From a virus (Duplodnaviria > Heunggongvirae > Uroviricota > Caudoviricetes): a stretch of 64,000 nucleotides of DNA. The stretch spans positions 1 through 64,000 of IMG/VR virus record IMGVR_UViG_3300021963_000025. The stretch is one strand, 5' to 3'. Below the pieces are notes generated by a model. That model worked only from the letters and a program-made list of their open reading frames with translations. It was not told where the DNA came from and ran no database searches. Position numbers and translations under genes: made by a program. Each line of letters opens with the position of its first letter. The stretch's first letter is position 1. Shown here piece after piece: positions 198-63,567 of this stretch.

Positions 198-1322
198 ATG
201 GAAAATCAAAATTCAGTTTGCTACATAGCAAAAATCAACGAAGTAAGGGCAATCGAAGGAGCAGATAACATCGAATTAGTTATCGCAGGTGGATGGAATG
301 CCATTACAAAGAAAGGTGAATATAATGTCGGAAATGCAGTGATAATTGCAACAACTGATGCAGTTATCCCAGAATCACTTTCTGAATCTATGGGAGTAAC
401 TAATTACTTAAGAAAGGGTAATAGAGTACGTACTGTAAAATTACGTGGAGTCTACTCAGAATGTTTAATCATTCCAGGAAACTATCTTAAGGCTAAATTT
501 TTAGTTGAAGGTGCCGACTGTATGGAAGCACTTGGTATTACTAAATACGAGCCACCAGTTAAACAAGTACAATTGGCATCTGGTAGAAAAATCAAATGGA
601 GAGATAACCAAAACTTCCATATCTACTACAAGTTTCCAAACTTGAAAAATGTAGCCGGAATGTTTACCCAAGAGGATGAGGTTCAAATCACCAGAAAAAT
701 CCACGGAACAAATGCCAGATTTGGTATTGTAAAGAAATCTAAATTGACCTTTATGGACAAAGTAAAGAAATTCTTTAGAATTGCTGACGAATGGGTTAAT
801 TATGAGTACATCTACGGTTCTCATAACTGTGAGAAAGGTTCTGACTCTCAAGGATTCTATTCAACTGACGTTTGGAGAACAATCGCAGAAACTTATGGTA
901 TCAAAGAAAGACTTTGGAACCAGGCTAAAAAATACAGTGCTGAAGATTTGGGTTCTGGATTGGTTCTTTATGGAGAAATCTATGGAGCAGGAATTCAAAA
1001 GAACTATGAATATGGTTTAACTGACATCAAGTTTGTTGGATTCGATATTACTGTAAATGGAGAATATTTAGCACCAGAAACTACTCATTTGGTAACTTCT
1101 TGTGATTTAGAACTTCCGCATGTAGAGGTACTTTACAATGGACCATGGTCTCAAGAGGTACAAGACGGCTATGTATTTAATAACTTCATTGAAGGTTCTA
1201 AAGTACCACATGAGGGAATTGTAATCAAACATGTATCTGGTGAGAGAAAGAAAGTAGCGAAGGTTATTAACCCAGACTACTTAATTTACGGTGAAAAGAA
1301 TAACGTAGGAGATTCTCACTAA
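198..1322 (+). CDS. ATP-dependent RNA ligase, Rnl2/Rnl5-like (N-terminal extra domain + nucleotidyltransferase domain)
   Basis: Motif I context TRKIHGTNARFG matches the T4 Rnl2 KIHGTN adenylylation motif; GEIYGAG and EGIVIKH..KKVAKV resemble ligase motifs IV/V; the ~165-aa N-terminal domain is reminiscent of Rnl5 (DraRnl/NgrRnl) architecture. Confidence 0.65.
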   Translation: MENQNSVCYIAKINEVRAIEGADNIELVIAGGWNAITKKGEYNVGNAVIIATTDAVIPESLSESMGVTNYLRKGNRVRTVKLRGVYSECLIIPGNYLKAKFLVEGADCMEALGITKYEPPVKQVQLASGRKIKWRDNQNFHIYYKFPNLKNVAGMFTQEDEVQITRKIHGTNARFGIVKKSKLTFMDKVKKFFRIADEWVNYEYIYGSHNCEKGSDSQGFYSTDVWRTIAETYGIKERLWNQAKKYSAEDLGSGLVLYGEIYGAGIQKNYEYGLTDIKFVGFDITVNGEYLAPETTHLVTSCDLELPHVEVLYNGPWSQEVQDGYVFNNFIEGSKVPHEGIVIKHVSGERKKVAKVINPDYLIYGEKNNVGDSH

Positions 1323-1777
1323 TGGCTGTAGATTATAAAAGAGTCCTCCTAGGAATGCTAGGAGAAAAGATAGTAGCAAAACATTTTAGGGATTCCGGAC
1401 ATCAGGTCGAGGAATCCCTAAATGTCTTTGACTCGGACAAAGATATGGTAATTGATGGATATAATGTTGAGGTAAAAACAAATGCACCCCTAATTTATTA
1501 CGATTCATTCTCGTTTAAAAAGAATCAATACGATAAAATCATGAATTCACATCGAGTTTATTGGGTTTCGGTTCCGTTGCAAACACAAGAGGACAAGTTC
1601 GCTGGATGTGTTTTTGAAATGGACCCTAAGGTTGCAAAGTTACATACAATTACTTTTAACTCCGGACAAACTGCAATAGGTCTCCGTCGACAACAAGAGG
1701 GAATGAAGATAATCCATCGAATTGAAGATACTACAATATTAAAACAACTAAGGGAACTATCATCTTCATATTTATAA
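1322..1777 (+). CDS. hypothetical protein, possible PD-(D/E)xK/YraN-like nuclease fold
   Basis: ORF start overlaps upstream stop (TAATG); D-x(n)-VEVKT pattern resembles UPF0102/YraN-type endonuclease core; weak. Confidence 0.5.
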   Translation: MAVDYKRVLLGMLGEKIVAKHFRDSGHQVEESLNVFDSDKDMVIDGYNVEVKTNAPLIYYDSFSFKKNQYDKIMNSHRVYWVSVPLQTQEDKFAGCVFEMDPKVAKLHTITFNSGQTAIGLRRQQEGMKIIHRIEDTTILKQLRELSSSYL

Positions 1778-1789
1778 GATATATAGTAC

Positions 1790-2491
1790 ATGAAACGTAT
1801 TAAATTATTTGAGGAATTTATTTCTGAAGCAGAAGAAAAAGAAATAAACAAAGGCCCACTGGATAACGCCGATATTAATAAAGCACTTGATAAAAAGGCT
1901 AAAGAATCTGGAGTTCCAATAGGAATCCTTAGAGCAGTAATGCGAAGAGGAATGGGAGCTTGGAATAGTAGCCACCGCGCTGGCGTAAGTCAAGAGGCTT
2001 GGGGATATGCCAGAGTAAATGCATTCCTTGAGAAAGGTGAAGGAACTTGGCAAAATGCTGACGCTGACCTGGCAAAACAGGTTCGAGACGGCGGACATGA
2101 TAAAAAGTTACCATATAAAGTTGAAGAGTCCCTAAACGAGGCTGAAGAGACTTACAATGACTATCCAGCAGCCGCAAAGGAGAATGCAAAGAAGGCATTG
2201 GATTGGAGAGACCAGTATGGTCGTGATGAAGTAACTGCAGGTACTCCAGTTGGATGGCAGCGTGCTAATCAATTGGCAAAAGGTGAAAAACTTTCTCTAG
2301 ATGTTGTTTCCAGAATGGCACAATTTAATCGTCATAGAAAAAACTCAAAGATAGCACCAGAACATAAATCAGAGCCATGGAAGGACAATGGATATGTTGC
2401 ATGGTTAATTTGGGGAGGAGATGAAGGAGTTGATTGGGCTATGAAAAAAATGGATGAAATTAATAAAACCAAAGATAATGAAAAAAATTAA
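1790..2491 (+). CDS. hypothetical protein with N-terminal peptide MKRIKLFEEFISEAEEKE shared with next gene (possible capsid-targeting signal)
   Basis: 233-aa ORF; N-terminal 16 aa nearly identical to N-terminus of CDS 2478-3020; no recognisable catalytic motifs. Confidence 0.65.
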   Translation: MKRIKLFEEFISEAEEKEINKGPLDNADINKALDKKAKESGVPIGILRAVMRRGMGAWNSSHRAGVSQEAWGYARVNAFLEKGEGTWQNADADLAKQVRDGGHDKKLPYKVEESLNEAEETYNDYPAAAKENAKKALDWRDQYGRDEVTAGTPVGWQRANQLAKGEKLSLDVVSRMAQFNRHRKNSKIAPEHKSEPWKDNGYVAWLIWGGDEGVDWAMKKMDEINKTKDNEKN

Positions 2492-3020
2492 ACTATTCGA
2501 AGAGTTCCTAAATGAAAAGGAGAAAGTAACTTATGGTGCAAATTGCGCAATGTTATATTTTGACTTTCCAGCAATGGCAACCCTTCATCAATCGATTAAT
2601 CCTCGTGACATCTACATGGTAGAAAACAACGAGAGTTATGGACTTGAAACTGAACCACACTGTACACTTCTTTATGGAATTGAACCTCAAGTAACAGTGG
2701 ACCAAGTTGCAAAAAAACTTGAAGGAATTAAATTTGGAGAGTGTAAGGCACATAACCTTTCTCTTTTTGAAAATGAAAAATTTGACGTACTAAAATTTGA
2801 TATGGAAGGTGATAATCTTCACAATGCAAATAAGGCACTTACTGAATTACCATATAAAACGGACTATCCGGATTATATGCCCCACATGACTGTTGCATAT
2901 TTAAAACCTGGAAAAGGTTCTGAATATCTAAAGATATTAAACTCGCAAGAACATTCTCTCAAACCGCTGCATATTGTTTACAGTATGACAGACGGCTCTA
3001 AACAAAAAATAGATTTATAA
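2478..3020 (+). CDS. 2H phosphoesterase superfamily protein (LigT/cyclic phosphodiesterase-like)
   Basis: Two H-x-T-x motifs (EPHCTLLYG and MPHMTVAYL) with spacing typical of the 2H/LigT fold; start chosen at MKKIKLFEEF (2478) because of N-terminal homology with CDS 1790. Confidence 0.6.
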   Translation: MKKIKLFEEFLNEKEKVTYGANCAMLYFDFPAMATLHQSINPRDIYMVENNESYGLETEPHCTLLYGIEPQVTVDQVAKKLEGIKFGECKAHNLSLFENEKFDVLKFDMEGDNLHNANKALTELPYKTDYPDYMPHMTVAYLKPGKGSEYLKILNSQEHSLKPLHIVYSMTDGSKQKIDL

Positions 3021-3023
3021 ATT

Positions 3024-3197
3024 ATGACACTAGAAAAAACATTAGGAGTTATTAGACACGCATTAACATTCGGAGGAGGTTTCCTTGTAACTTCAGGTTA
3101 CTTGACAGAATCTACTCTTGATACTGGAATCGGTGCATTAGTAACACTTATTGGTGTAATTTGGTCAGTTATTGATAAGAATAAAAAAACAGTATAA
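3024..3197 (+). CDS. small membrane protein (57 aa)
   Basis: Short ORF not in supplied track; hydrophobic GGGFLVTSGYL...GIGALVTLIGVIW segments; fills gap after upstream stop. Confidence 0.35.
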   Translation: MTLEKTLGVIRHALTFGGGFLVTSGYLTESTLDTGIGALVTLIGVIWSVIDKNKKTV

Positions 3198-3262
3198 TTT
3201 GAAACAAATAGGTTTCAGACTGTATAACTATTAAATTATTAATAACAATAAACCAAACAAAA

Positions 3263-3439
3263 ATGAAAAAAGTATTTTTAGCTTTATCTTTAGTATTCGC
3301 TTTAGCGGTAGTTGGATGTAAGCAAGCACAAGCCACAGATTCTACAACAACAGATTCAACTGCAGTAGTGGTTGATTCAGTAAAAGTAGATTCTACAACA
3401 GTTCAAGTTGACACTGTAAAAGTTGACACTGTAAAGTAA
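3263..3439 (+). CDS. small lipoprotein (58 aa) with threonine/valine-rich repeats
   Basis: Signal peptide MKKVFLALSLVFALAVVGC with lipobox cysteine; followed by terminator hairpin. Confidence 0.45.
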   Translation: MKKVFLALSLVFALAVVGCKQAQATDSTTTDSTAVVVDSVKVDSTTVQVDTVKVDTVK

Positions 3440-3464
3440 TTAAAACTTTAACAAAATTTTAACA

Positions 3465-3492
3465 CTCCAGACTTTCGGGTCTGGAGTTTTTT
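3465..3492 (+). terminator. rho-independent terminator hairpin
   Basis: ctccagac-loop-gtctggag followed by a T-run; part of the recurrent intergenic cassette. Confidence 0.6.
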
Positions 3493-3520
3493 GATTATAT
3501 TTACATTATAATTAAAACAA
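3491..3520 (+). promoter_or_regulatory. conserved promoter-like cassette motif (TTGATTATATTTACAT..AATTAAAACAA)
   Basis: One of >20 near-identical copies located 5-15 nt upstream of start codons. Confidence 0.55.
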
Positions 3521-3521
3521 T

Positions 3522-3746
3522 ATGATACGAAGTAAACAAGAAAAGAACGGACCAATTATTATAGACCTTACAGGTCCTGACGGAAATGCATACGCTCTTA
3601 TGGCCTATGCTAGAAGATTTGCAACCCAATTAGGATGGTTGGACTGTGGTTCGGCACTTATTCAAGAAATGATGAGTGGAGACTATGAGCATCTTTTACA
3701 AGTATTTGATAATGCATTCGGTGAATATGTAATCCTAGAGCGATAA
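3522..3746 (+). CDS. hypothetical protein
   Basis: 74-aa ORF directly after the promoter cassette; stop overlaps next start. Confidence 0.55.
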   Translation: MIRSKQEKNGPIIIDLTGPDGNAYALMAYARRFATQLGWLDCGSALIQEMMSGDYEHLLQVFDNAFGEYVILER

Positions 3747-4090
3747 TGGCTAAATATAAAATACCCAGAGACAGGGTCTTTAAAGACTTTGGAATCATGA
3801 AAACAATTAGTGGTACCTACATATGTCCGGGTTGGATTCCTGTAGATGAGGGAACCACTAGAGAGGATGTAGAGTTCAGTGACGATATAATTATTGAGAA
3901 ACCAATCAATTCAACAGAATTGAAGCCTGAGACTCAGAAGGACCTTGAATTTAAGGTACCATCATCAAATGGAAAATCTGAATACTTGGTTAAATTTCAG
4001 AGAGGGGTTTGGAGTTGTAACTGTCCCGCATCAAGTTTCCGAAGAGGAGATTGTAAGCATATCAAAGCACAACAATGCGTACAAGGATAG
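3746..4090 (+). CDS. SWIM-type zinc-finger protein
   Basis: C-terminal CNCPASSFRRGDCKH fits the CxCx(n)CxH SWIM pattern. Confidence 0.55.
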   Translation: MAKYKIPRDRVFKDFGIMKTISGTYICPGWIPVDEGTTREDVEFSDDIIIEKPINSTELKPETQKDLEFKVPSSNGKSEYLVKFQRGVWSCNCPASSFRRGDCKHIKAQQCVQG

Positions 4091-4368
4091 TTCACCTCAA
4101 AAAGGAACCTTATGATGTTTATATTGGACGACCCTCGAAGTGGGGAAATCCATACTCTCATAAGGAGGGAACACTAGCCGAATTTAAAGTTCAAAACCGG
4201 GCAGAGGCCATAGAAAAATATGAAAAATATTTGCTCGAAAATGAAACTTTATTTAACTCTCTGATAGAATTAAAGGGAAAAACTCTTGGATGTTGGTGTA
4301 AACCTAATAAATGTCATGGAGATATACTCGTAAAGTGGTCGAATTCAATTGAAAATCAACTATTTTAA
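4075..4368 (+). CDS. DUF4326-like phage protein
   Basis: YDVYIGRPSKWGNPY ... CWCKPNKCHGD pattern typical of DUF4326 family proteins common in phages. Confidence 0.55.
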   Translation: MRTRIVHLKKEPYDVYIGRPSKWGNPYSHKEGTLAEFKVQNRAEAIEKYEKYLLENETLFNSLIELKGKTLGCWCKPNKCHGDILVKWSNSIENQLF

Positions 4369-4654
4369 AATAATTTAAAAATAATTCAAATTTACATTGA
4401 ATTTTTTGAAACAAAAAGATATATAATACTATAATATACATAAGAAAAAATTCTTATATATAATTAACACAAATAAAACAAGCAATAATGCAAGCAATTC
4501 AAAGACATATCAATTTAATGGAACAGCCAGTCCTTACGACAGGTCGCCCGATATGTGCCTCTTATTTTAGTAATGGGGATTGGAAGCATAGTGGTTCTTT
4601 TGAAACAAAACAGGTTAATATGAGTTAAGCTCTATTAACATAACAATATTCAAA

Positions 4655-4686
4655 AGGACCTTTCAGAAATGATTGGTCCTTTTTTG
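4655..4686 (+). terminator. rho-independent terminator hairpin
   Basis: aggacc ... ggtcct stem followed by TTTTTT, upstream of the tRNA cluster. Confidence 0.5.
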
Positions 4687-4695
4687 ATTTTATAT

Positions 4696-4766
4696 GTTTC
4701 GTTGGTCGATTGGTTAGGCACTGGATTGCAAACTCAGTTAGGTTGGTTCGATTCCAACACGAAACT
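4696..4766 (+). tRNA. tRNA-Cys(GCA)-like, irregular D-arm
   Basis: 7-bp acceptor gtttcgt/acgaaac, T-arm gttgg-ttcgatt-ccaac, anticodon loop ttGCAaa; the D-stem does not pair cleanly. Confidence 0.45.
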
Positions 4767-4820
4767 CAAAATAAAACTTTAACAAAATTTTAACATTTAA
4801 AGTTTTACCGATTAAAAGAT

Positions 4821-4850
4821 TTGTATTATATTTACATATCAAATTAGAAC
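4821..4850 (+). promoter_or_regulatory. conserved promoter-like cassette motif, tRNA-operon variant
   Basis: ttgtattatatttacatatcaaattagaacaaagg precedes tRNA-Gly; same motif repeated at 5987. Confidence 0.5.
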
Positions 4851-4882
4851 AAAGGTTCTTTGACATACTGATAACACAATTT

Positions 4883-4954
4883 GCAGCTGTCGTATAATGG
4901 CTATTACTTTAGACTTCCAATCTAAAGATGAGGGTTCGATTCCCTCCAGCTGCT
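4883..4954 (+). tRNA. tRNA-Gly(TCC)
   Basis: Acceptor gcagctg/cagctgc, anticodon stem ctttaga/tctaaag with loop cTTCCaa, T-arm gaggg-ttcgatt-ccctc. Confidence 0.7.
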
Positions 4955-5264
4955 CAATGTATTGATTACCGGCCACAAGCCTCGCACCTTTACCCTAAAT
5001 CGTAGGGATATACTCAAAATGGTGAGACCGGGAAGCTTTCGTAACCGCATCCAAGTGGGCAGTAGGGGATGACGAAAAGAAATAAATTGTATAATGGCGA
5101 AAATATGGAATCGGCCGATAAACATAGAAGTAGCATGTAACGAATATCCGAAAGGAGAATAACGAAGCTCAGCGGTATCAATCAAACACCTCCTCGCGGT
5201 GATACTGGAAATTAGTCATGAACCATCCGGATGGAAAGCAACTAAAACCAAGTTTGAATAATAA

Positions 5265-5335
5265 TGGCTTATAGTGTAACGGTAGCACAAAACACTTTGA
5301 CTGTTTTAGCCCAGGTTCGAATCCTGGTAAGCCAA
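5265..5335 (+). tRNA. tRNA-Gln(TTG)
   Basis: Acceptor tggctta/taagcca, anticodon stem aaaca/tgttt with loop cTTTGac, T-arm ccagg-ttcgaat-cctgg. Confidence 0.65.
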
Positions 5336-5498
5336 CAAATAATTGTAAGTATCGAAAGCCCATCCCAACGCTTGATCAGTAAGTAGGACGGTTAGTATTG
5401 AAAACATTATTAGTAAGTGGTGGAGAAATCCATGCGGAGAAAACGATGCAAGACGCAAGCACAGGGAACCAGCCCGATGGCTTTACTTACGAATATTT

Positions 5499-5569
5499 CT
5501 AGTAGCGAAGCCCGGTTTCATGCCTCACTTGGACTGAGGAGTACGCAGGTTCGAATCCTGCCTATTAGA
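5499..5569 (+). tRNA. tRNA-Pro(TGG)
   Basis: Acceptor ctagtag/ctattag (one G-U), anticodon stem cctca/tgagg with loop cTTGGac, T-arm gcagg-ttcgaat-cctgc; D-arm irregular. Confidence 0.55.
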
Positions 5570-5703
5570 CAAAAAGGATGGTTGCTGCAAAAAATACAAA
5601 TTAGGCTGTTAACCTCGTGGTCGTCGGTTCGAATCCGGCCACTGCTCTTCGGAGTAGTGTAGCTCAGCTGGTAGAGCACGTACAAAAAACCCATCCTGAA
5701 TTT

Positions 5704-5784
5704 GCCCGGGTGGTGGAATTGGTAGACACACTAGACTTAGAATCTAGCGCGAAAGCATTGAGGGTTCGAGTCCCTCCCTGGGTA
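5704..5784 (+). tRNA. tRNA-Leu(TAG), class II
   Basis: gcccggg acceptor, D region tggtggaattggtagacac typical of Leu tRNAs, anticodon stem ctaga/tctag with loop cTTAGaa, long variable arm, T-arm gaggg-ttcgagt-ccctc. Confidence 0.65.
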
Positions 5785-5864
5785 CAAAATTAAAGTTAGC
5801 TTATAGTAAAGCAACCCACGTGGTAGTGGGCGAAGGGATTCAAACACCCACTTTAATTTAATTT

Positions 5865-5936
5865 GCTTCTGAAACATAAATGGTAATGTACTTGATTTGT
5901 ACTCAAGAAAACGGGGTTCGATTCCTCGCAGAAGCT
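5865..5936 (+). tRNA. tRNA-Thr(TGT)
   Basis: Acceptor gcttctg/cagaagc, D-stem acat/atgt, anticodon stem cttga/tcaag with loop tTTGTac, T-arm cgggg-ttcgatt-cctcg. Confidence 0.7.
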
Positions 5937-5986
5937 CTAAACTTTAACATAATTTTAACACTTAAAGTTTTCGGGTTTAAAAAACT

Positions 5987-6016
5987 TTGTTTATATTTAC
6001 ATAACAAATTAGAACA
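5987..6016 (+). promoter_or_regulatory. conserved promoter-like cassette motif, tRNA-operon variant
   Basis: tttgtttatatttacataacaaattagaacaaagg, duplicate of the 4821 copy, precedes tRNA-Glu. Confidence 0.5.
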
Positions 6017-6047
6017 AAGGTTCTTTGACATACTGATAACAAAAACT

Positions 6048-6119
6048 GCTGCGTTAGTGAAGAGGTTAACACGTATCACTTTCTATGATAAGGCACGGGT
6101 TCGAACCCCGTACGCAGTA
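6048..6119 (+). tRNA. tRNA-Glu(TTC)
   Basis: Acceptor gctgcgt/acgcagt, anticodon stem tatca/tgata with loop cTTTCta, T-arm acggg-ttcgaac-cccgt. Confidence 0.65.
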
Positions 6120-6177
6120 CAATTAACCTTTTTACCATTTTGCATGGATATATAGATTATAAAAACATCTAAATACT

Positions 6178-6828
6178 ATGCAAAGAGCACAAAGAAGGAA
6201 ATTTCATTACATCTATAAAACTACATGTATAATTACTGAAAGGTTTTATATTGGAATGCATTCAACTGACAATCTAGAAGATGGTTACATTGGTTCAGGT
6301 AAAAGATTATGGCATTCAATTAATAAACATGGAAAGGAGAATCATGTTTGCCAGATATTGGAATTCTTACCTGATAGAAAATCATTAGCCGAAAGAGAAA
6401 AGGAAATTGTTAATATTGAATTGATTGGCGAAGAACTATGTATGAATTTAAAAGTTGGTGGAGAAGGTGGTGGAAGAATATTTAATGAACAACATCTTTT
6501 AAATCTTAGAGAAGGAGCTAAAAAATGGATGACTAACAAATGGAAAGACAAAGATTTTGCTACTAAAATTAAAGAAACATTAAGACTAGCGATAATTAAA
6601 AATCACAAAGAAGGAAAAATCAAATACGACACATTTACTGGTAAATCACATAAAGTAGAATCTAAAAGATTAATTGGAGAAGCTAATTCCATTAAACAAA
6701 AAGGAGATAAAAATTCTCAATATGGTAAATGTTGGATAACAAATGAAATTGAATCTAAAAAAATCTATAAAGGTGATACAATACCTGAAGGATGGAGATT
6801 AGGTAGAAAAATGAAACTAAAAATTTAG
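6178..6828 (+). CDS. GIY-YIG homing endonuclease (free-standing, inside tRNA cluster)
   Basis: N-terminal HYIYKTTCIITERFYIGMHS...GSGKRLW GIY-YIG motif; paralogue of CDS 9218-9874. Confidence 0.75.
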   Translation: MQRAQRRKFHYIYKTTCIITERFYIGMHSTDNLEDGYIGSGKRLWHSINKHGKENHVCQILEFLPDRKSLAEREKEIVNIELIGEELCMNLKVGGEGGGRIFNEQHLLNLREGAKKWMTNKWKDKDFATKIKETLRLAIIKNHKEGKIKYDTFTGKSHKVESKRLIGEANSIKQKGDKNSQYGKCWITNEIESKKIYKGDTIPEGWRLGRKMKLKI

Positions 6829-6876
6829 AAATATTATACATTGGTTCGCACTAAACAGTAGAGGAAGTGTAATTTT

Positions 6877-6948
6877 GGGGCTATCGTATAACGGCAATTA
6901 CAATGGTTTTGCAAATCATAAATTAGGGTTCGATTCCCTATAGCTCCA
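6877..6948 (+). tRNA. tRNA-Ala(TGC)
   Basis: Acceptor ggggcta/tagctcc with the G3:U70 Ala identity pair, anticodon stem atggt/atcat with loop tTTGCaa, T-arm taggg-ttcgatt-cccta. Confidence 0.7.
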
Positions 6949-6956
6949 CAACAAAA

Positions 6957-7032
6957 GGTCTTGTGAGCCCCATTGGCCGGGGAATTGCACTGTCACTGCT
7001 CTAAAATGAGGGTTCGAAACCCTCCGGGACCG
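6957..7032 (+). tRNA. tRNA-like element with encoded CCA, non-canonical core
   Basis: Acceptor ggtcttg/cgggacc and T-arm gaggg-ttcgaaa-ccctc followed by g-CCA, but no foldable D/anticodon arms found (direct repeat cactg-cactg instead). Confidence 0.3.
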
Positions 7033-7043
7033 CCATGAACAAT

Positions 7044-7117
7044 CGAGGTGTAGTAGAGTTGGTTACAATGTCGCCCTGTCACGGCGAAGGTCACGGGTTC
7101 GAGTCCCGTCATCTCGG
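7044..7117 (+). tRNA. tRNA-Asp(GTC)
   Basis: Acceptor cgaggtg/catctcg, anticodon stem tcgcc/ggcga with loop cTGTCac, T-arm acggg-ttcgagt-cccgt. Confidence 0.7.
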
Positions 7118-7270
7118 CAAATCTTAAGAAGTAATTAATCTTAAGACTGAATGGTTCGAAACATTCGGAATGATTATGGTGTATGGTGCACGGTAGAAGG
7201 TAGTAAGTCCGGAAGTGGCTGAGGGTGGAAACAGGATTAAGGTTCAAATCCTTACTAATCAACTAACATA

Positions 7271-7338
7271 GCGGGGTAGTGTAAAGGTAGCATGAAGGGC
7301 TCATAACCCTTAGGTCGGGTTCGAATCCTGCGACCGCA
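7271..7338 (+). tRNA. tRNA-Met(CAT)-like, initiator-like anticodon stem; ends uncertain
   Basis: Anticodon stem aaggg/ccctt (three consecutive G-C pairs as in initiator tRNA) with loop cTCATaa; T-loop ttcgaat present but T-stem/acceptor pairing imperfect, so coordinates approximate. Confidence 0.4.
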
Positions 7339-7399
7339 ACTAAGTGATTTGGTTCTAGATGTTCCGGACGTTGGCTTTAATAACGTAAAAATCTAAATT

Positions 7400-7471
7400 G
7401 GATTCTTAGCTCAGAGGCAGAGCGGTTGTTTGTTAGGCAACGGGTCGAGATTTCGAAATTCTCAGAGTCCT
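7400..7471 (+). tRNA. tRNA-Asn(GTT)
   Basis: Acceptor ggattct/agagtcc, D-stem gctc/gagc, anticodon stem gttgt/gcaac with loop tTGTTag, T-arm gagat-ttcgaaa-ttctc (one mismatch). Confidence 0.55.
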
Positions 7472-7477
7472 CAAAAT

Positions 7478-7549
7478 TCTTCTCTCGTATAAAGGTTATT
7501 ACGGTTGACTGTTAATCAATTTATCTAGGTTCGAGTCCTAGGGGAAGAG
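7478..7549 (+). tRNA. tRNA-Asn(GTT), second copy
   Basis: Acceptor tcttctc/gggaaga, anticodon stem gttga/tcaat with loop cTGTTaa, T-arm ctagg-ttcgagt-cctag. Confidence 0.55.
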
Positions 7550-7614
7550 CAAATTACCATTAAGGAATGATACGAGCCCCCAAAGTTCGAAAAGAGTCAG
7601 ATGGTAATTAAATT

Positions 7615-7686
7615 GCTCCTATAGTAGAATGGTTAGCACACATCTCTGATAAGGATGAAATGGAGGTTCAATTCCTTCTAGGAGTA
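7615..7686 (+). tRNA. tRNA-Ile(GAT)
   Basis: Acceptor gctccta/taggagt, anticodon stem catct/ggatg with loop cTGATaa, T-arm ggagg-ttcaatt-ccttc. Confidence 0.65.
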
Positions 7687-7694
7687 CAAAAATT

Positions 7695-7775
7695 GGGTAG
7701 CAAAAGTCGTTCGGATACGGCAGCCGGTCTGTAAAATCGGTCCTCACGGGAGTGGTTCGAGTCCACTGCTGCCCA
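7695..7775 (+). tRNA. tRNA-Tyr(GTA), class II
   Basis: Acceptor gggtagc/gctgccc, anticodon stem ccggt/atcgg with loop cTGTAaa, long variable arm, T-arm agtgg-ttcgagt-ccact. Confidence 0.65.
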
Positions 7776-7857
7776 CGAAGAAGGAGCTGTGGGTTCGAGT
7801 CCCACCTGGCCTAGCTGAAACTGGGTCGGTAGAGAAATTGGCACACTCGCCTTCGTA

Positions 7858-7931
7858 GGGGTCTTTTGTATAGCTGGTGCGTACGCTAGTCTGAAGAACT
7901 AGAGGAACAGGTTCGATTCCTGTAGGACCCA
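7858..7931 (+). tRNA. tRNA-Phe(GAA)
   Basis: Acceptor gggtctt/aggaccc, D-stem gtat/gtac, anticodon stem ctagt/actag with loop cTGAAga, T-arm acagg-ttcgatt-cctgt. Confidence 0.7.
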
Positions 7932-8114
7932 CAAACAAGTCAGTAGTCGATGGTAGACGGCTAAATTTTTTAATCATTTATGTATGGACTATCTTAGACG
8001 TAAGGTGGAAAATCATAAAGGATTAAATAGAATATGACTCTGAAAGGTCGACAAGATGAGAGTATTTAACAAGATTTAGTAGGCAGGTTCGATCCCTGTT
8101 ATGTGGCTCAAAAA

Positions 8115-8192
8115 TGCGATGTTGGTCAGAGACGGTCTCATGAGCCGTATCGGTAGATATACCCTCCAGAGGTTCAATTCCTCTAATCGCAA
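8115..8192 (+). tRNA. tRNA-like element, anticodon undetermined
   Basis: T-arm agagg-ttcaatt-cctct with acceptor tgcgatg/aatcgca (6 of 7 pairs); internal region does not give a canonical anticodon arm. Confidence 0.3.
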
Positions 8193-8197
8193 CAAAT

Positions 8198-8268
8198 ACG
8201 GGTATGGTGCAATGGTAGCATACCGGTCTCCAAAACCGACGATGGGGGTTCAAATCCCTCTGCCCGTG
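8198..8268 (+). tRNA. tRNA-Trp(CCA)
   Basis: A1:U72 acceptor acgggta/tgcccgt as in bacterial Trp tRNAs, anticodon arm ccggt-cTCCAaa-accga nearly identical to E. coli tRNA-Trp, T-arm ggggg-ttcaaat-ccctc. Confidence 0.65.
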
Positions 8269-8275
8269 CAAAAAC

Positions 8276-8350
8276 GTTCTTGTAGCTAAATTGGTGAAGG
8301 CGCTCGGCTCATAACCGAGAGATATGCAGGTTCGAGTCCTGCCAAGGACA
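8276..8350 (+). tRNA. tRNA-Met or tRNA-Ile2 (CAT), CCA encoded
   Basis: Acceptor gttcttg/caaggac, anticodon stem ctcgg/ccgag with loop cTCATaa, T-arm gcagg-ttcgagt-cctgc, followed by a-CCA. Confidence 0.65.
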
Positions 8351-8355
8351 CCACT

Positions 8356-8427
8356 GGTCTTATAGTTTAATTGGAAAAACTTATCGCTACGAACGATAGA
8401 ACGTAGGTTCGACTCCTACTAAGACCT
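8356..8427 (+). tRNA. tRNA-Arg(ACG)
   Basis: Perfect acceptor ggtctta/taagacc, D-stem agtt/aact, anticodon stem tatcg/cgata with loop cTACGaa, T-arm gtagg-ttcgact-cctac. Confidence 0.75.
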
Positions 8428-8435
8428 CAAAAAAT

Positions 8436-8504
8436 AGCGAGTGAGCTCGGGATCAAGGATGGCTCATATCCGACCTTAGATTGGTTCGAATCCAATACTC
8501 GCTA
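8436..8504 (+). tRNA. tRNA-like with probable CAT anticodon (third CAT species), short D region
   Basis: Perfect acceptor agcgagt/actcgct and T-arm attgg-ttcgaat-ccaat; candidate anticodon arm gatgg-cTCATat-ccgac with one mismatch; only 69 nt. Confidence 0.45.
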
Positions 8505-8646
8505 CAAAATGATTGTATACTAGTAAAGGTAAAACTAGGTCTGCCGGTAAATCAGACGTCTAACGACTAGGTTAATGAAAGATGATGAAAGTGTCGCGAG
8601 TTAGTAATCATCATGGTTCGAGTCCCCTTACAGTCACAAAATACAA

Positions 8647-8719
8647 TCCCTCGAAGCTCATGTGGACGGGCACTCCGCTTTTAACGGAGGGGTAGATGGT
8701 TCGAGGCCATCCGGGGGAA
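8647..8719 (+). tRNA. tRNA-Lys(TTT)
   Basis: Acceptor tccctcg/cggggga, D-stem gctc/gggc, anticodon stem ctccg/cggag with loop cTTTTaa, T-arm gatgg-ttcgagg-ccatc. Confidence 0.7.
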
Positions 8720-8750
8720 CTAGGAGAAAAGCAGAAGTTAATAATATCTG

Positions 8751-8823
8751 CGGCGGTTAGTTCCAAGTGGTTAGAATGCCGGCGTAGAGCCGGAGGTTAT
8801 GGGTTCGAGTCCCATACTGTCGT
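8751..8823 (+). tRNA. tRNA, anticodon unresolved (loop cgTAGag with G at position 33)
   Basis: Acceptor cggcggt/actgtcg, D-stem gttc/gaat, T-arm atggg-ttcgagt-cccat; only a 4-bp ccgg/ccgg anticodon stem with an atypical loop. Confidence 0.45.
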
Positions 8824-8966
8824 AGTAAAATAGCCGATGCAGTAAAAGGTTCCAAAAAGTGTAGCAACCTGATAAACTGAACAGTTGCAAATGTTCTTTT
8901 TAGTGAAGTTGGGCTTTACAAAGACTCGCGATCTTAGGTAAAGTGTTCCTTTTACACTCTTAACTT

Positions 8967-9037
8967 GCCTCGTTGGCGTAATGGAAGCGTATTTGTTTTA
9001 CATGCAAAGGGCGGTGGTTCGATTCCACTACGAGGTA
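8967..9037 (+). tRNA. tRNA-Val(TAC)
   Basis: Acceptor gcctcgt/acgaggt, anticodon stem tttgt/gcaaa with loop tTTACat, T-arm ggtgg-ttcgatt-ccact. Confidence 0.65.
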
Positions 9038-9105
9038 CAAAATTAGACTGTTAAGGTAGGACGTCAGTCGAAGAGAGGTGAGCCATACCTAATCCTCTCA
9101 ATATG

Positions 9106-9178
9106 GTGATTGTAGCTGAATTGGTAAAGCACTTGATTGTGGTTCAAGAGATTGTGGGTTCGAGTCCCATCCTTCACA
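9106..9178 (+). tRNA. tRNA-His(GTG) with A73 discriminator and encoded CCA
   Basis: Anticodon stem cttga/tcaag with loop tTGTGgt, D region tagctgaattggtaaagc, T-arm gtggg-ttcgagt-cccat then ccttcac-a-CCA; acceptor gtgattg pairs 5/7 with ccttcac; a G is present at -1 (9105), but position 73 is A rather than the bacterial C. Confidence 0.55.
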
Positions 9179-9217
9179 CCAGAAACCTTTTTAACATTTT
9201 CCATAGATATATAGTTT

Positions 9218-9874
9218 ATGGAAAACGTTATAAAGAAACAAGCAAGTAGAAGGAAATACCATTACATCTATAAAACTACATGTATTATTACAAACCGGTT
9301 TTATATTGGAATGCACTCAACAGACAACCTAGAAGATGGTTATGTTGGTTCAGGTAAAAGATTATGGCATTCAATAAATAAACATGGCAGGGAGAATCAT
9401 GTTTGCGAGATATTGGAATTTTTTCCGGATAGAAAATCATTAGCCGAAAGAGAAAAGGAAATTGTTAATATTGAATTGATTGGTGAAGAACTATGTATGA
9501 ATTTGGCTGTAGGAGGAGATGGAGGATTTTCAAAAGAAACCCAGAGATTAGGTGCAAAAAAATCTAATGAAAGGCAAATTGAATTAAGAAATGATGAAAA
9601 TTGGAGATTGCATAAGCAAATCGCACAATCTAACGCATTAAAGAATAGTTACAAAACAGGAAAGAGAGAAGCACATTATTTCTATGATTGGTCTGGAAAA
9701 CAACTTTCAGATGAAACAAAGCAAAAAATAGGAGCATCATCTTCTATCAAACAAAAAGGAGAAAACAATTCCCAATATGGTAAATGTTGGATAACAAATG
9801 AAATTGAATCTAAAAAAATCTATAAAGGTGATACAATACCTGAAGGATGGAGATTAGGTAGAAAAATTAAATAA
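9218..9874 (+). CDS. GIY-YIG homing endonuclease (paralogue of 6178-6828)
   Basis: N-terminal 95 aa and C-terminal 45 aa nearly identical to CDS 6178-6828, with a divergent middle segment; GIY-YIG motif YIYKTT...FYIGM. Confidence 0.75.
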   Translation: MENVIKKQASRRKYHYIYKTTCIITNRFYIGMHSTDNLEDGYVGSGKRLWHSINKHGRENHVCEILEFFPDRKSLAEREKEIVNIELIGEELCMNLAVGGDGGFSKETQRLGAKKSNERQIELRNDENWRLHKQIAQSNALKNSYKTGKREAHYFYDWSGKQLSDETKQKIGASSSIKQKGENNSQYGKCWITNEIESKKIYKGDTIPEGWRLGRKIK

Positions 9875-9987
9875 GTTAACTTATTTTACAATCGACGATA
9901 CCCAGAGGGTATAAGTCTTGGTTAGAGATTTATTCTTACAAACTCAGTACCTAAAGCTGAGCGGCCAGACAATGGGACTGGCTTTAT

Positions 9988-10060
9988 ATCCCTGTGGTGA
10001 AACGGTAAACACAACGAGTTTAAGCCTCGTAAGCTGCAGGTTCGACTCCTGTCAGGGATA
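9988..10060 (+). tRNA. tRNA with anticodon TAA (Leu-decoding) on a class I scaffold
   Basis: Perfect acceptor atccctg/cagggat, anticodon stem acgag/ctcgt with loop tTTAAgc, 5-nt variable loop, T-arm gcagg-ttcgact-cctgt. Confidence 0.5.
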
Positions 10061-10066
10061 CAACAT

Positions 10067-10139
10067 GCCCCTATAGCATAAATGGAAATGCAACATCCTT
10101 CTAAGATGTCAAATGGAGATTCGAATTCTTCTAGGGGTA
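10067..10139 (+). tRNA. tRNA-Arg(TCT)
   Basis: Acceptor gccccta/taggggt, D-stem gcat/atgc, anticodon stem acatc/gatgt with loop cTTCTaa, T-arm ggaga-ttcgaat-tcttc. Confidence 0.65.
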
Positions 10140-10148
10140 CAACAAATT

Positions 10149-13974: not shown

Positions 13975-16308
13975 ATGTCAATATTTAAAACCACTTTAAG
14001 TGTAGAATCAACTGACCCATCTACACCAGTTAAATTTACTGCAACTCAAAACAATGATTTAACGAATGACATTGTTACTGGTAAAGTAATGGTTGATTCA
14101 AATTTTCCACCAACAGTAATTAATGTACCACAAACAGGAGCTAAAGGTTCTTATGTTTATATTAAATCAAGTGCAACAAACCCAAAACACACCCTAATTA
14201 CTATCTCAAGCGAAGGAGAGTTTATACTATCACTTAGTCCTGGAGAGTATGCAGTCGTTCCTTTTATGGCATCTTATAATAGTAATCTTTTTGCAACGGT
14301 AACACATGGAACTGCAGAATTAGAATATTTAACTGGAAGCCGAGGAGAGGAAATTGGAGAAAGCGTACTTGTAAGATTCCAAGACCCAAATACTAGTACA
14401 TGGAAATATTTTACGTTAGACGCTGCAACTGGAAAACCTGGACCGATGGTAGATACTGGTGTTCAATATAATGTATATCCAAACCAACAAGTTTCGGCAC
14501 TTGTTAATCAAAAAGGTTATATCTTAGAATTTTATAATAACGACAACGAACATAAATTTGTTTTTGTAGGTACTTCAGGCCAAATAATATCATCTGAGGA
14601 AATTAACCAAAATTTTAATAGATATCAAGGAGACGGAAGAGCCAACTTAATAACGTGGTATGATGGTAATGGAAATGGACATGCTTTTTACTTTGATGGA
14701 GATAATCTTTATACACATGATTTTGTAAACATTGATGGTATTTTTGTAGATGACAACTGGGATGCTTGTGCTGCTGATGGAACTTTCCCAGTTTACATTG
14801 AAGGATATAATGGAGGTACTCAAGAAGCAGTTTTCTTTGTTAAGGGAGCTGATAAAAAGCTGGTTAAAACAACTTCAAATGGCGACTACATGAACACATA
14901 TACAGGTGCTTATGCTAATTTCGTTGCAATGGAAACCTTATATAATGATGGAGATACCTATCTCTACTCAGTAGAAATTTATGACACTGATGGTACCCTT
15001 CTTAAAAGTGTAAATTTTAATGAAATGTGGATAGATAGTTCTGATTTTTACTTCTATGGTTCTGGAAAAATGCAAATTGTATATAGAGATGGTGATACTA
15101 GTGATTTAATATTCTTAAATTATAACCAACTTACCGGAAAACTTATCGGAGATGACCTATTATGGAGAGATAATTCTCAAACATATCAAGTAGTTATCGA
15201 CACATATCGTACAGGATACAGCCGTCCATATAGACCCGAATCTGTAGCTATTTTATTATATTATAACGAGGGACAGAATTATAGTTATTTGTTAAATCAA
15301 GATACTGATGGTGGTTTAAAAGTAACATACATAATCAATAATGATTTAGAGGCCCGAAATTACACTGTTCCATACACTGAAGATCGTTATTTTGCTGCTA
15401 ATTATTGGTATGATAGTTTATTTGCAAGTAATACTGATTTTATCCTATTATCAGCTGAAAATAGAACATCTGGTCCTTTAATTGCAACACGATTTGCTTC
15501 AGGTGTAGAACCTACAAAATTCCAAGTTATCCCTGATCTTAGCGTTTACAACGTTTCTAATATAGATAGCGGCGCATGGATTGATGGATATATCTTTGGA
15601 GACTACAGATATCTAGCAATTAGAAAAAATTCAGGAAATGGAGATAGAGACGTTATAGTATATGACGGTAAAAAAGTATTAGACACTATTTCAGGAATAT
15701 TTTGGGATGATTTTTCAACACCAACTGAATTTAACCAATTGAGTGTTATTGATTGGAATAATGAAAATATTTGGTATTTTAATACTTCTACTAAAAAGTT
15801 TGTTAAACTTCCAACAGGAGGATGGGTATGGGATTGGGATTCTCCTAGTAGCGAAGGTGCACAATACCCAGTAGGAACTGGTAAAACCATTATAACAAAA
15901 GTTAAAGATAATACAGATTCTGTATCGATATGGGGTAGAGTTATAACTAAAGGTTCTGCTGCAAATGAAAAAGAATTGTTAAAGTTTGGGAATCAACCAA
16001 ATTTTGAATGGTACTATTTATATACATATATGACTACTGAAACTATAGTTTTAGGATATAAGGAATACTACAATAGTACTTGGAAATTCAAAGTTTTCGA
16101 CCTTAACCTTAACTTTCTATATGAAGTTGATACAGAAAAAACAGAACGTTGGACTGATGATTATTATGGAAAATCAGTCTATTATGCTCTACATGATAAT
16201 AATGGAAACTGGACATATTACAACTTTGGAAAATTGTTAAATTCATTAGACTTGAATGATTATGTTCAACCATCGGATTATGCTTTTAATAACGATGACT
16301 GGTTTTAA
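13975..16308 (+). CDS. large Asn/Tyr/Gly-rich protein, putative virion structural or receptor-binding protein (paralogue A)
   Basis: 777 aa; shares conserved blocks (SYVYIKSSATNPKHT, ELEYLTGSRGEE, TYIINND, N-terminal and C-terminal segments) with the adjacent 778-aa ORF. Confidence 0.75.
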   Translation: MSIFKTTLSVESTDPSTPVKFTATQNNDLTNDIVTGKVMVDSNFPPTVINVPQTGAKGSYVYIKSSATNPKHTLITISSEGEFILSLSPGEYAVVPFMASYNSNLFATVTHGTAELEYLTGSRGEEIGESVLVRFQDPNTSTWKYFTLDAATGKPGPMVDTGVQYNVYPNQQVSALVNQKGYILEFYNNDNEHKFVFVGTSGQIISSEEINQNFNRYQGDGRANLITWYDGNGNGHAFYFDGDNLYTHDFVNIDGIFVDDNWDACAADGTFPVYIEGYNGGTQEAVFFVKGADKKLVKTTSNGDYMNTYTGAYANFVAMETLYNDGDTYLYSVEIYDTDGTLLKSVNFNEMWIDSSDFYFYGSGKMQIVYRDGDTSDLIFLNYNQLTGKLIGDDLLWRDNSQTYQVVIDTYRTGYSRPYRPESVAILLYYNEGQNYSYLLNQDTDGGLKVTYIINNDLEARNYTVPYTEDRYFAANYWYDSLFASNTDFILLSAENRTSGPLIATRFASGVEPTKFQVIPDLSVYNVSNIDSGAWIDGYIFGDYRYLAIRKNSGNGDRDVIVYDGKKVLDTISGIFWDDFSTPTEFNQLSVIDWNNENIWYFNTSTKKFVKLPTGGWVWDWDSPSSEGAQYPVGTGKTIITKVKDNTDSVSIWGRVITKGSAANEKELLKFGNQPNFEWYYLYTYMTTETIVLGYKEYYNSTWKFKVFDLNLNFLYEVDTEKTERWTDDYYGKSVYYALHDNNGNWTYYNFGKLLNSLDLNDYVQPSDYAFNNDDWF

Positions 16309-19184: not shown

Positions 19185-19601
19185 ATGGCATCATTAAAAA
19201 CAACAATAAACCTGGATTCAACCACTCTTTTCCCAAATCCGTTGGCTCTTAAATCAGTAGATACTGAGAATATTAGTGCTGATTTATCTTCATTAGCAAC
19301 TAATCAATTACAACCTTCAGGTGAAGAGGTAATCTTAAACACAAATGAACAATCTGGAGATTCTGGAGTTATGTACTTTTATTGTAAATCAGTAACTACC
19401 AATTCAAACTTTGGTATTGATATTTACTTAACGCATAATTCAGACGATCAAAATACTTTCCATTTTGCAAGATTACTATCAGGAAATGCAGCATTCTTAC
19501 CGATTTATGCAGCAGATTCACAAGGATTTACAATCAGCGTTAAAAACAACGACCCAGTTAATCCAGCAACAGTACAATATTTCTACGGAGCAAAAGCATA
19601 A
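19185..19601 (+). CDS. hypothetical protein
   Basis: 138-aa ORF followed by a terminator. Confidence 0.65.
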   Translation: MASLKTTINLDSTTLFPNPLALKSVDTENISADLSSLATNQLQPSGEEVILNTNEQSGDSGVMYFYCKSVTTNSNFGIDIYLTHNSDDQNTFHFARLLSGNAAFLPIYAADSQGFTISVKNNDPVNPATVQYFYGAKA

Positions 19602-63154: not shown

Positions 63155-63372
63155 TGGCAAAGAAACCACAACTTACCGAATTTCATTACCATGAGGCTCT
63201 TGATAGAGCCTATATGATAGGAGATATTATTGATCGTCACATGATACAGCATCCTGTTTGTAAACTTGACAAAGAGGTTAACCAATTGGTTGAAGAGGCC
63301 GCAATGAAAATCTTTGAAGCATATCAATTATTAGGACATCGTAGCGTTGAGCTATTTCCTGATGATATATAA
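63154..63372 (+). CDS. hypothetical protein
   Basis: ORF. Confidence 0.5.
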   Translation: MAKKPQLTEFHYHEALDRAYMIGDIIDRHMIQHPVCKLDKEVNQLVEEAAMKIFEAYQLLGHRSVELFPDDI

Positions 63373-63375
63373 TAC

Positions 63376-63567
63376 ATGAAAACATTTAACGAATTTATAA
63401 TTGACGAGTCTAAAACAATTGGCTTAGAAGAGACAGAACCTAATAATGAAATTAATCCAGTTGAACCTGGAGATGGTGAAGATGAAAGATTGGTAAAAAT
63501 CCGACAATTCAAAGGAAAGGTTTCTGACTACGCAAGCTATTGGGAAGACCGAATTAATAAAGGCTAA
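63376..63567 (+). CDS. hypothetical acidic protein
   Basis: ORF. Confidence 0.45.
   Translation: MKTFNEFIIDESKTIGLEETEPNNEINPVEPGDGEDERLVKIRQFKGKVSDYASYWEDRINKG

Follow-up and report, generated by a model that had tools for sequence, protein, structure and literature searches.

Two adjacent genes with a common N-terminus

The stretch of DNA analyzed here, referred to as the window, comprises positions 1 to 64,000 of the viral record IMGVR_UViG_3300021963_000025 (IMG/VR; Caudoviricetes). It is part of a large phage genome (a 92.7-kb metagenomic contig, ENA), has a G+C content of 34.7% and carries nearly all of its genes on the plus strand. Close to its left end lie two adjacent open reading frames (ORFs), designated ORF A and ORF B, whose predicted products begin with almost the same short peptide, hereafter the tag: MKRIKLFEEFISEAEEKE in the product of ORF A and MKKIKLFEEFLNEKEK in that of ORF B (Table 1). 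Our analysis focused on the nature of this peptide, which the original prediction had likened to a capsid-targeting/propeptide signal of the kind found on the internal proteins of phage T4.

Ten of the first 13 residues of ORF A and ORF B are identical, and the similarity ends there. The shared unit has the consensus M-K-x-I-K-L-F-E-(E/Q)-F-(I/L/V)-x-E; from residue 14 the proteins continue as AEEKEINK... (ORF A) and KEKVTYGANCAMLYF... (ORF B), and past residue 16 they are unrelated (BLASTP E = 1.7). The original prediction of a common N-terminus on two otherwise unrelated proteins was thus correct, but the length of the shared segment had to be revised from 16 to 13 residues, with Glu13 as the last one. 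When all ORF N-termini of the window are compared with one another (7,140 pairs), ORF A and ORF B rank first, with 9 of 12 identities at positions 2-13; the second-ranked pair, both members of which begin with MK.IFLD.DGV, consists of apparently related proteins. The core of the motif was found at three ORF N-termini of the window, including that of a small ORF near its right end, and at none of 15,171 internal positions.

At the nucleotide level, 27 of the 39 positions of the first 13 codons are identical, synonymous codons differ at 5 of the 10 identical residues, and the DNA upstream of the two tags is unrelated, which argues for conservation of the peptide and not for a recent DNA duplication. 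A duplicated translation-initiation region, considered as a trivial cause of the similarity, was ruled out on the same grounds. ORF B has a further in-frame ATG upstream, at position 2454; its homologues, down to approximately 50% identity, begin at MKxIKLFEEF, and the near-identical gene of locus L097 has a stop two codons upstream, so the start at 2478 is considered real.

Table 1. Location of the tagged ORFs and associated sequence features within the 64,000-nt window.
Feature	Position	Strand	Description
ORF A	1790..2491	+	233 aa: tag, DUF5824-like domain, disordered linker and all-alpha C-terminal domain
ORF A tag	1790..1828	+	MKRIKLFEEFISE, 13 codons, last residues I-S-E; fits the 13-aa consensus of at least 152 viral-contig ORFs
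Internal S-L-N-E of ORF A (aa 114-117)	2129..2140	+	In the disordered linker (pLDDT <50)
ORF A C-terminal domain	2150..2488	+	From TYNDYP, aa 121; built into head-assembly proteins in other viruses
ORF B	2478..3020	+	180 aa: tag and predicted 2H phosphoesterase (Acb1-like)
ORF B tag	2478..2516	+	MKKIKLFEEFLNE, 13 codons, last residues L-N-E
Third tagged ORF	63376..63567	+	63 aa, MKTFNEFIIDE..., small acidic protein; of the window's ORFs the closest to the T4 leaders MKTFKEF / MKTYQEFIAE
GATATATAG motif	1778..1786	+	3 nt before the ATG of ORF A; candidate late promoter element
GATATATAA motif	63364..63372	+	3 nt before ORF 63376

Distribution of the tag and diversity of the tagged proteins

Using a degenerate DNA pattern for M-K-x-I-K-L-F-E-(E/Q)-F, in which positions 11-13 were left free, we searched a collection of viral contigs for further ORFs with the same N-terminus, a check proposed along with the original prediction. 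At least 152 such ORFs were found in at least 119 loci, nearly all with an in-frame stop 0-20 codons upstream of the tag. In the 137 distinct tags from other contigs among the matches listed, positions 11-13 read (I/L/V/M)-x-E in 97 cases, and conservation collapses past position 13. In 596 Gb of bacterial and archaeal genomes the pattern was matched only four times, each time on a contig of a metagenome-assembled genome (MAG), and the tag is therefore considered a viral feature and not a cellular signal. One of these four lies on a 254-kb contig (L302; CAIWBA010000291.1) assigned to a Bacteroidetes MAG; the contig probably belongs to a jumbo phage that was binned wrongly, and its assignment gives a weak hint at Bacteroidetes as the host phylum. 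The strings KLFEEF and KLFEQF were not found in papers of the literature searched.

The tag precedes very different proteins. Among the matches listed, 143 tagged proteins are 60 aa or longer, and these form at least 77 unrelated clusters when the tag is trimmed (BLASTP 1e-5). The majority of the cluster representatives have no Pfam match; the others include (i) Acb1/2H, (ii) Tad3, (iii) ankyrin repeats, (iv) cytidylyltransferase-like, (v) ATP-grasp and (vi) AAA_33/zeta-toxin-like kinase proteins, as well as (vii) DUF5824 and (viii) DUF5661. Tad3 is a family of Thoeris inhibitors, and the Tad3, Acb1 and ankyrin matches represent cargo of an anti-defence type. Tagged genes may stand in tandem (up to five consecutive genes in L105), and at least 10 are present in the approximately 50 kb sampled from 234-236-kb contigs, as compared with the three internal proteins (Ips) of T4. 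The contigs of this size are IMGVR_UViG_3300042563_003307, IMGVR_UViG_3300042511_000879 and IMGVR_UViG_3300042318_001127. A nicotinamide mononucleotide (NMN)-adenylyltransferase-like protein, VVMPGRFQPFHNGH, bears the tag in L055, L093 and L110; the window itself carries genes of NAD salvage (34251-35720 and 27715-28584), encoding NAMPT and a phosphoribosyltransferase / phosphoribosyl pyrophosphate-synthetase-like protein.

Homologues of ORF B retain the tag to approximately 50% identity. Remoter ones have other leaders, mostly ending in hydrophobic-x-E, such as ...RMQKLAGIITE. Leaders seen on distant homologues of ORF B (P0048-P0120) or of the C-terminal domain of ORF A (P0157, P0215 and P0239) include MIKLLDLLKE, MKLIKDYVTWLFES, ..FKRMQKLAGIITE, MKIFKKFKDFLTE and MKTFSQFIQE. 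These divergent leaders may be lineage-specific forms of the same signal. Untagged homologues of the 2H domain and of the ORF A C-terminal domain begin exactly where the tag ends.

Head module of the tag-bearing phages

Homologues of T4 gp17, gp18, gp20, gp21, gp23 and UvsW were identified in 35 of the 119 tag loci listed. Several of these loci show the same order of head genes: a gp55-like gene, the portal gene, a small tagged ORF (referred to as the slot ORF), a gene for a protease-scaffold fusion (580-680 aa), 0-3 tagged ORFs and the capsid protein gene. Of the 24 distinct cases of an ORF between the portal and protease genes, 23 begin with MK.(I/V/L)(K/R/Q).(F/Y)... In L018, L063/L085, L066 and L109 the protease gene has other tagged ORFs next to it, some of them between the protease and capsid genes. 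The scaffold half of the fusion protein is composed of 14-residue repeats with the motif Y-(S/T/A)-E-(H/Y/T)-(L/I/V)-A-E, e.g., YSEHVAE, YAETLAE, YSEHIAE, YTNYLAE and YAEYVAE; every repeat has a putative protease site at its end and is similar to both the T4 leader YQEFIAE and the core of the tag.

A prohead protease, which had also been suggested as something to look for, is encoded by a close relative of the window. The 234-kb contig IMGVR_UViG_3300042563_003307 contains locus L086, which is syntenic with positions 1322-6155 of the window (69-94% aa identity). A head module (L293) on the same contig was reached from L086 by two exact-pattern walking steps; the best 80 loci from the protease alignment, and those from the portal query, did not include this contig. 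L293 encodes (i) a portal protein matching T4 gp20 (E = 2e-27); (ii) a 116-aa slot ORF between portal and protease, beginning MKIIKTFEEFTSSLQE; (iii) a Peptidase_S77 domain (T4 gp21 family; 44.7 bits, cut-off 27) within a 640-aa protein fused to the scaffold (2275-4197 of L293, minus strand); and (iv) a capsid protein of the Gp23 family (141.7 bits).

These genes mark the tag-bearing contigs as distantly related to T4. In the phage collection, the closest capsid proteins come from metagenomic huge phages, Lak phages, Sphingomonas phage PAU and Tenacibaculum jumbo phages, and those of cyanomyophages are approximately 26% identical. The tag is absent from the head module of Tenacibaculum phage PTm1, a distant cultured relative by its capsid protein.

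ORF B encodes a predicted 2H phosphoesterase

The earlier assignment of ORF B to the 2H phosphoesterases was upheld by motifs, profile and model. The protein contains two H-x-T motifs, PHCTLLYG (H61 and T63) and PHMTVAY (H136 and T138); among 54 homologues H136 and T138 are invariant, while H61 and T63 are at least 90% conserved. It matches Pfam Acb1 (PF23474) with 31.5 bits (cut-off 27), and 2_5_RNA_ligase2 with 23.9 bits, which is under the cut-off of that family. In the AlphaFold2 model the overall predicted local distance difference test score (pLDDT) is 88; residues 1-15 score below 50 and lie outside the fold, and the score exceeds 90 from about residue 20. The top Foldseek matches of the model are all 2H enzymes: Acb1 (7T27, E = 2.5e-5; 7T26), the phosphodiesterase of Burkholderia phage BCSR5 and LigT of Escherichia coli (E = 6.5e-5). 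By sequence and model ORF B is thus a 2H phosphoesterase.

Within this superfamily the preference for Acb1 over LigT is marginal. Acb1 is the anti-CBASS (cyclic oligonucleotide-based anti-phage signalling system) 2H phosphodiesterase family of T4 gene 57B, and ORF B resembles it in the Pfam threshold, both H-x-T motifs and the model. A search of PDB sequences gave E = 0.013 for Acb1, with 14-18% identity to the solved Acb1 proteins, and LigT scores nearly as well; ORF B differs from Acb1 and LigT enzymes by the N-terminal tag and the neighbouring RNA ligase gene. The window contains 24 tRNA genes (4696-10140) and a set of putative tRNA maintenance genes (198-1322, 32438-33262, 36533-37273 and 42801-43478), encoding an RNA ligase, a Thg1-like tRNA-His guanylyltransferase, a CCA-adding/poly(A)-polymerase-head enzyme and an RNase T-like exonuclease. 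Immediately upstream of position 1 (L120) there is an AAA_33 kinase-like gene. Since these enzymes are encoded together with ORF B, a role in tRNA repair is plausible, and the healing of cleaved tRNA is at least as good a candidate function as the destruction of cyclic-oligonucleotide signals.

ORF A encodes a two-domain protein whose C-terminal domain occurs in head proteins

Pfam DUF5824 was recognized at aa 34-93 of ORF A (E = 2.4e-10). The AlphaFold2 model has a pLDDT of approximately 97 over aa 121-233, and the linker preceding this region (aa 105-117) is below 50; a Foldseek comparison of the model with PDB returned nothing below E = 3. Both the DUF5824 domain and the C-terminal domain are found elsewhere as separate tagged proteins. 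The junction between them, ...VEESLNE/AEETYNDYP (slash after Glu117), mirrors stand-alone proteins with the sequences MKRIKLFEEFLNE/SEETYNDYP (L030) and MKHIKLFEDFINE/AEETYNDYP (P0123). The internal S-L-N-E therefore looks like a relic of a second tag end, and, since it lies in the disordered linker, aa 117 is a possible internal cleavage site.

Homologues of the C-terminal domain form 203 protein clusters; the majority are free-standing proteins of 107-200 aa, either untagged or with variants of the tag. In unrelated viruses it also occurs inside an 888-aa "prohead protease" (gene 11) of HGTV-1, a 1,139-aa portal-MuF fusion (gp9) of HRTV-28 and an 874-aa capsid fusion of Roseobacter phage CRP-701, which implies that the domain works from inside the capsid. 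A domain tethered covalently to head proteins elsewhere carries the tag here instead, and this offers independent support for a capsid-related role of the tag.

The cargo of this locus has been shuffled between close relatives. At the syntenic L086 locus the order is tag plus ATP-grasp, tag plus linker and C-terminal domain, and tag plus 2H, compared with tag plus DUF5824 and C-terminal domain, and tag plus 2H, in the window. Such a swap of cargo behind a constant tag is similar to that of the hypervariable ip loci of T-even phages (PMC3012670; PMC12373910).

Comparison with T4 and other phages

In T4 (NC_000866), the leader of IpII and IpIII is MKTYQEFIAE and that of IpI is MKTFKEFTSTTTPVSTITE (MKTFKEFTST). 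These leaders are capsid targeting sequences (CTS) that place the internal proteins in the scaffolding core. The substrates of the gp21 protease include IPI-III and Alt, which lose a short N-terminal peptide, gp23, which loses 65 residues, and gp24, which loses 10 (PMC9958956; PMC5694885). In the T4 sequence the cuts fall after ...FLTE(65) in gp23 and ...LLRE(10) in gp24. Past the leader the internal proteins have nothing in common, and their role is that of counter-defence proteins delivered by injection (PMC3012670; PMC12373910).

The tag resembles the T4 CTS (IPI, IPII, IPIII and Alt) as a short leader at the extreme N-terminus of unrelated proteins that ends in hydrophobic-x-Glu. Its core, F-E-(E/Q)-F-(I/L)-x-E, matches Y-Q-E-F-I-A-E of the T4 leaders; this is a resemblance of short motifs, for which homology is not statistically demonstrable. 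Bridging forms are the third tagged ORF of the window, P0215 (MFKTFQEFIFE) and the L293 slot protein MKIIKTFEEFTSS, whose KTFEEFTSS compares with T4 KTFKEFTST. The head genes are also alike: in the tag lineage the portal is of the gp20 type, the capsid protein of the gp23 type and the protease of the S77/gp21 family. On the other hand, the tag is 13 aa long and has an extra I-K-L segment, the protease and scaffold are fused, and the phages belong to a distant, uncultured jumbo clade. The cargo is far wider, with enzymes among the clusters, a conserved head-module protein is itself tagged, and the system is known here from sequence alone.

The surroundings of the genes can be compared as well. 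T4 has the order 57B (the Acb1 gene), ipI and a tRNA cluster with a homing endonuclease, and in the window the tagged ORF A and the tagged 2H gene are followed by a few small genes and a tRNA cluster interrupted by two paralogous ORFs (6178-6828 and 9218-9874). These two share an N-terminal stretch, HYIYKTTCIIT.RFYIGMHSTDNLEDGY.GSG, and the latter has a NUMOD3 motif, which is typical of homing endonucleases; both are therefore likely to be such enzymes, like segB in the T4 tRNA cluster.

Two other kinds of head-protein maturation and loading are related in part. In the giant phages phiKZ, 201phi2-1 and SPN3US, a T4-related prohead protease cuts propeptides after Glu, and gp53 and gp54 of SPN3US have identical first 15 residues, an example of conserved N-termini on diverged head proteins (PMC5694885). 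Most of these propeptides, however, exceed 100 residues, their motif is (S/A/G)-x-E and their cargo consists of dedicated head proteins and not of swappable small enzymes. The other kind comprises covalent fusions of cargo to head proteins (portal-MuF, MuF polymorphic toxins and polyproteins), with which the HRTV-28, HGTV-1 and CRP-701 forms of the ORF A C-terminal domain can be classed; in the window this domain is free-standing and has a short tag.

A probable capsid-targeting propeptide

Taken together, these data make it likely that the common 13-residue segment is a T4-type capsid-targeting propeptide, carried by a much wider range of proteins, and we infer that the tagged proteins are cleaved, packaged and injected. 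The likeness to a capsid-targeting propeptide noted originally has gained support from (i) the modular nature of the tag, which is disordered and outside the fold in the ORF B model and absent from some homologues, (ii) the resemblance to the T4 leaders, (iii) the usual (I/L/V)-x-E end, (iv) the S77 protease of the lineage and (v) the tagged gene of the head module.

The following sequence of events can be envisaged. ORF A and ORF B would be expressed during head building. The amphipathic tag would mimic one repeat of the scaffold (Y-x-E-aromatic-(L/I/V)-A-E) and dock its cargo on the scaffolding core that forms on the portal, after which the capsid shell would close around the core. The S77 (gp21-family) prohead protease would then degrade the scaffold and cut the tag after Glu13; in ORF A a second cut, after the internal S-L-N-E, is possible. 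The mature cargo would remain in the head and be ejected with the DNA, so that a finished 2H phosphoesterase, along with the two-domain protein of ORF A, would be delivered before the expression of any phage gene. Mimicry of the scaffold repeat, co-assembly with the core and removal by the very protease that dismantles the scaffold are suggested by the similarity of repeat and tag.

In a broader version of this proposal, the 13-residue scaffold-mimicking tag would be a general loading ticket in a large, uncultured, distant-T4 clade (including phages of approximately 235-255 kb), by which dozens of interchangeable proteins are pre-packed and injected: Acb1-like and Tad3-like counter-defence enzymes, enzymes of NAD and nucleotide metabolism, ankyrin and ATP-grasp proteins and many unknowns. 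For this joint claim we regard the chances of its being right or wrong as evenly balanced. T4 is the precedent for the principle; what appears to be new is the form of the tag, the scale on which it is used (at least 77 cargo clusters in the uncultured clade) and its presence on 2H/Acb1-like and Tad3-like proteins.

Several observations weigh against capsid targeting. The head module was seen on a related contig and not on the window's own, where the approximately 3 kb upstream and 1.5 kb downstream of the window contain no head genes. Searches of the phage collection (megablast with positions 1000-4500 of the window; tblastn with a 777-aa ORF and with the slot protein) gave no match, and thus neither a cultured or deposited close relative nor a virion proteome. 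The slot protein has no detectable homology to T4 gp67 or gp68 (hhalign probability 9% and 0.05%, respectively) and shares with them only the position of its gene and an acidic C-terminal tail. Approximately 29% of the tags among the matches listed are without (I/L/V/M)-x-E at positions 11-13. The statistics of GATATATAR, a candidate late-promoter motif described below, are weak (5 matches in the window versus 2.1 expected; upstream of 31% of tagged and 16% of other ORFs). The benefit of injection is less obvious for metabolic enzymes (NMN-adenylyltransferase-like, ATP-grasp and P-loop kinase proteins), and we know of no report that the Acb1 of T4 itself (57B) is packaged. The capsid proteins of the clade do not have a consistent Glu at the matching position of their N-termini, the commonest form being MANLINSAE (19 of 122 ORFs), and the specificity assumed for the protease therefore derives from its family membership only. 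A comparison of the capsid N-terminus MANLINE/AEI with T4 FLTE65/AEI, once considered as proof of this specificity, was dropped because the commonest form lacks the Glu.

Alternative explanations

Chance resemblance or a mis-called start codon, for which the upstream ATG of ORF B might be cited, is already refuted: the pair ranks first among all N-terminus comparisons of the window, the many further tagged ORFs have stops just upstream, and the homologues of ORF B begin at the tag, which leaves practically no probability for this explanation. The main rival is a tag that is functional outside the capsid, as a docking site for a phage partner (a chaperone, protease, compartment or membrane complex), as a degradation or timing signal or as an AT-rich translation-initiation leader. 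The tag codons are indeed AT-rich, the tag is present on presumed cytoplasmic enzymes (NMN-adenylyltransferase-like, ATP-grasp and kinase-like proteins), and the number of tagged genes sampled exceeds that of the Ips of T4. A translation leader, however, needs neither a peptide kept constant through synonymous changes nor a sharp end at Glu13, and a role outside the capsid would leave unexplained the likeness to the T4 leaders and scaffold repeats, the presence of the tag on the conserved ORF that separates the portal and protease genes, and the fusion of the ORF A C-terminal domain to head proteins elsewhere. We consider such a role unlikely, though still a serious competitor.

The shared 5' ends might instead be a device for, or a relic of, recombination, by which cassettes are swapped while the peptide does nothing for the protein. 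The variation of the cargo behind a constant tag between close relatives would fit, as would the resemblance of ORF A to a fusion of two formerly separate tagged genes, and Repoila and colleagues reportedly proposed in 1994 that the conserved leader-coding sequence aids the exchange of T-even ip genes. Yet the identity is found at the level of amino acids, half of the identical residues of ORF A and ORF B being encoded by other codons behind unrelated upstream DNA, and the motif persists between lineages with only 35-50% identity in their portal, protease and capsid proteins. Recombination and targeting are, moreover, not mutually exclusive. As the sole explanation, recombination seems to us very improbable.

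If the tag is a capsid-targeting propeptide, as we prefer to think, the consequences would extend beyond this locus. CBASS, Thoeris and other signalling defences take effect within minutes once a cell is infected, and a phage arriving with a ready-made degrading enzyme would pre-empt them. To our knowledge, leader-loaded, injected counter-defence proteins have so far been known mainly as the internal proteins of T-even phages, blockers of GmrSD-type restriction; the principle of leader loading would be extended to 2H/Acb1-type enzymes and, in a phage clade that is abundant in the environment, to at least 77 families of cargo, and mimicry of a scaffold repeat would be suggested as the mechanism of targeting. 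The 13-residue unit could then serve as a search key for candidate injected (anti-defence) proteins in metagenomes, and the tag as a transferable device with which foreign proteins are loaded into capsids of this kind.

Candidate late-promoter motif and other features of the window

The motif GATATATAR, which recalls the T4 element TATAAATA, is a candidate late promoter. All of its five matches in the window (1778, 4418, 6147, 9206 and 63364) are on the plus strand, and three of them precede an ATG by 3 nt (1790, 9218 and 63376). In the L293 head module, five matches (507, 2226, 4222, 8636 and 12832, minus strand) were found versus 0.48 expected, an approximately ten-fold excess, and they are always on the coding strand. 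The distance to the start codon is often 3-25 nt, which implies that 5' leaders would be very short or absent.

Another shared N-terminus, M-(S/A)-x-(F/L)-K-(T/S)-T, was noticed in three further ORFs of the window, two of which are paralogous (13975-16308 and 16343-18679; 777 and 778 aa, respectively) and the third of which encodes 138 aa (19185-19601). These ORFs matched nothing in Pfam and have no relatives in the phage collection; they may encode structural (fibre-like) proteins with an N-terminal module of their own.

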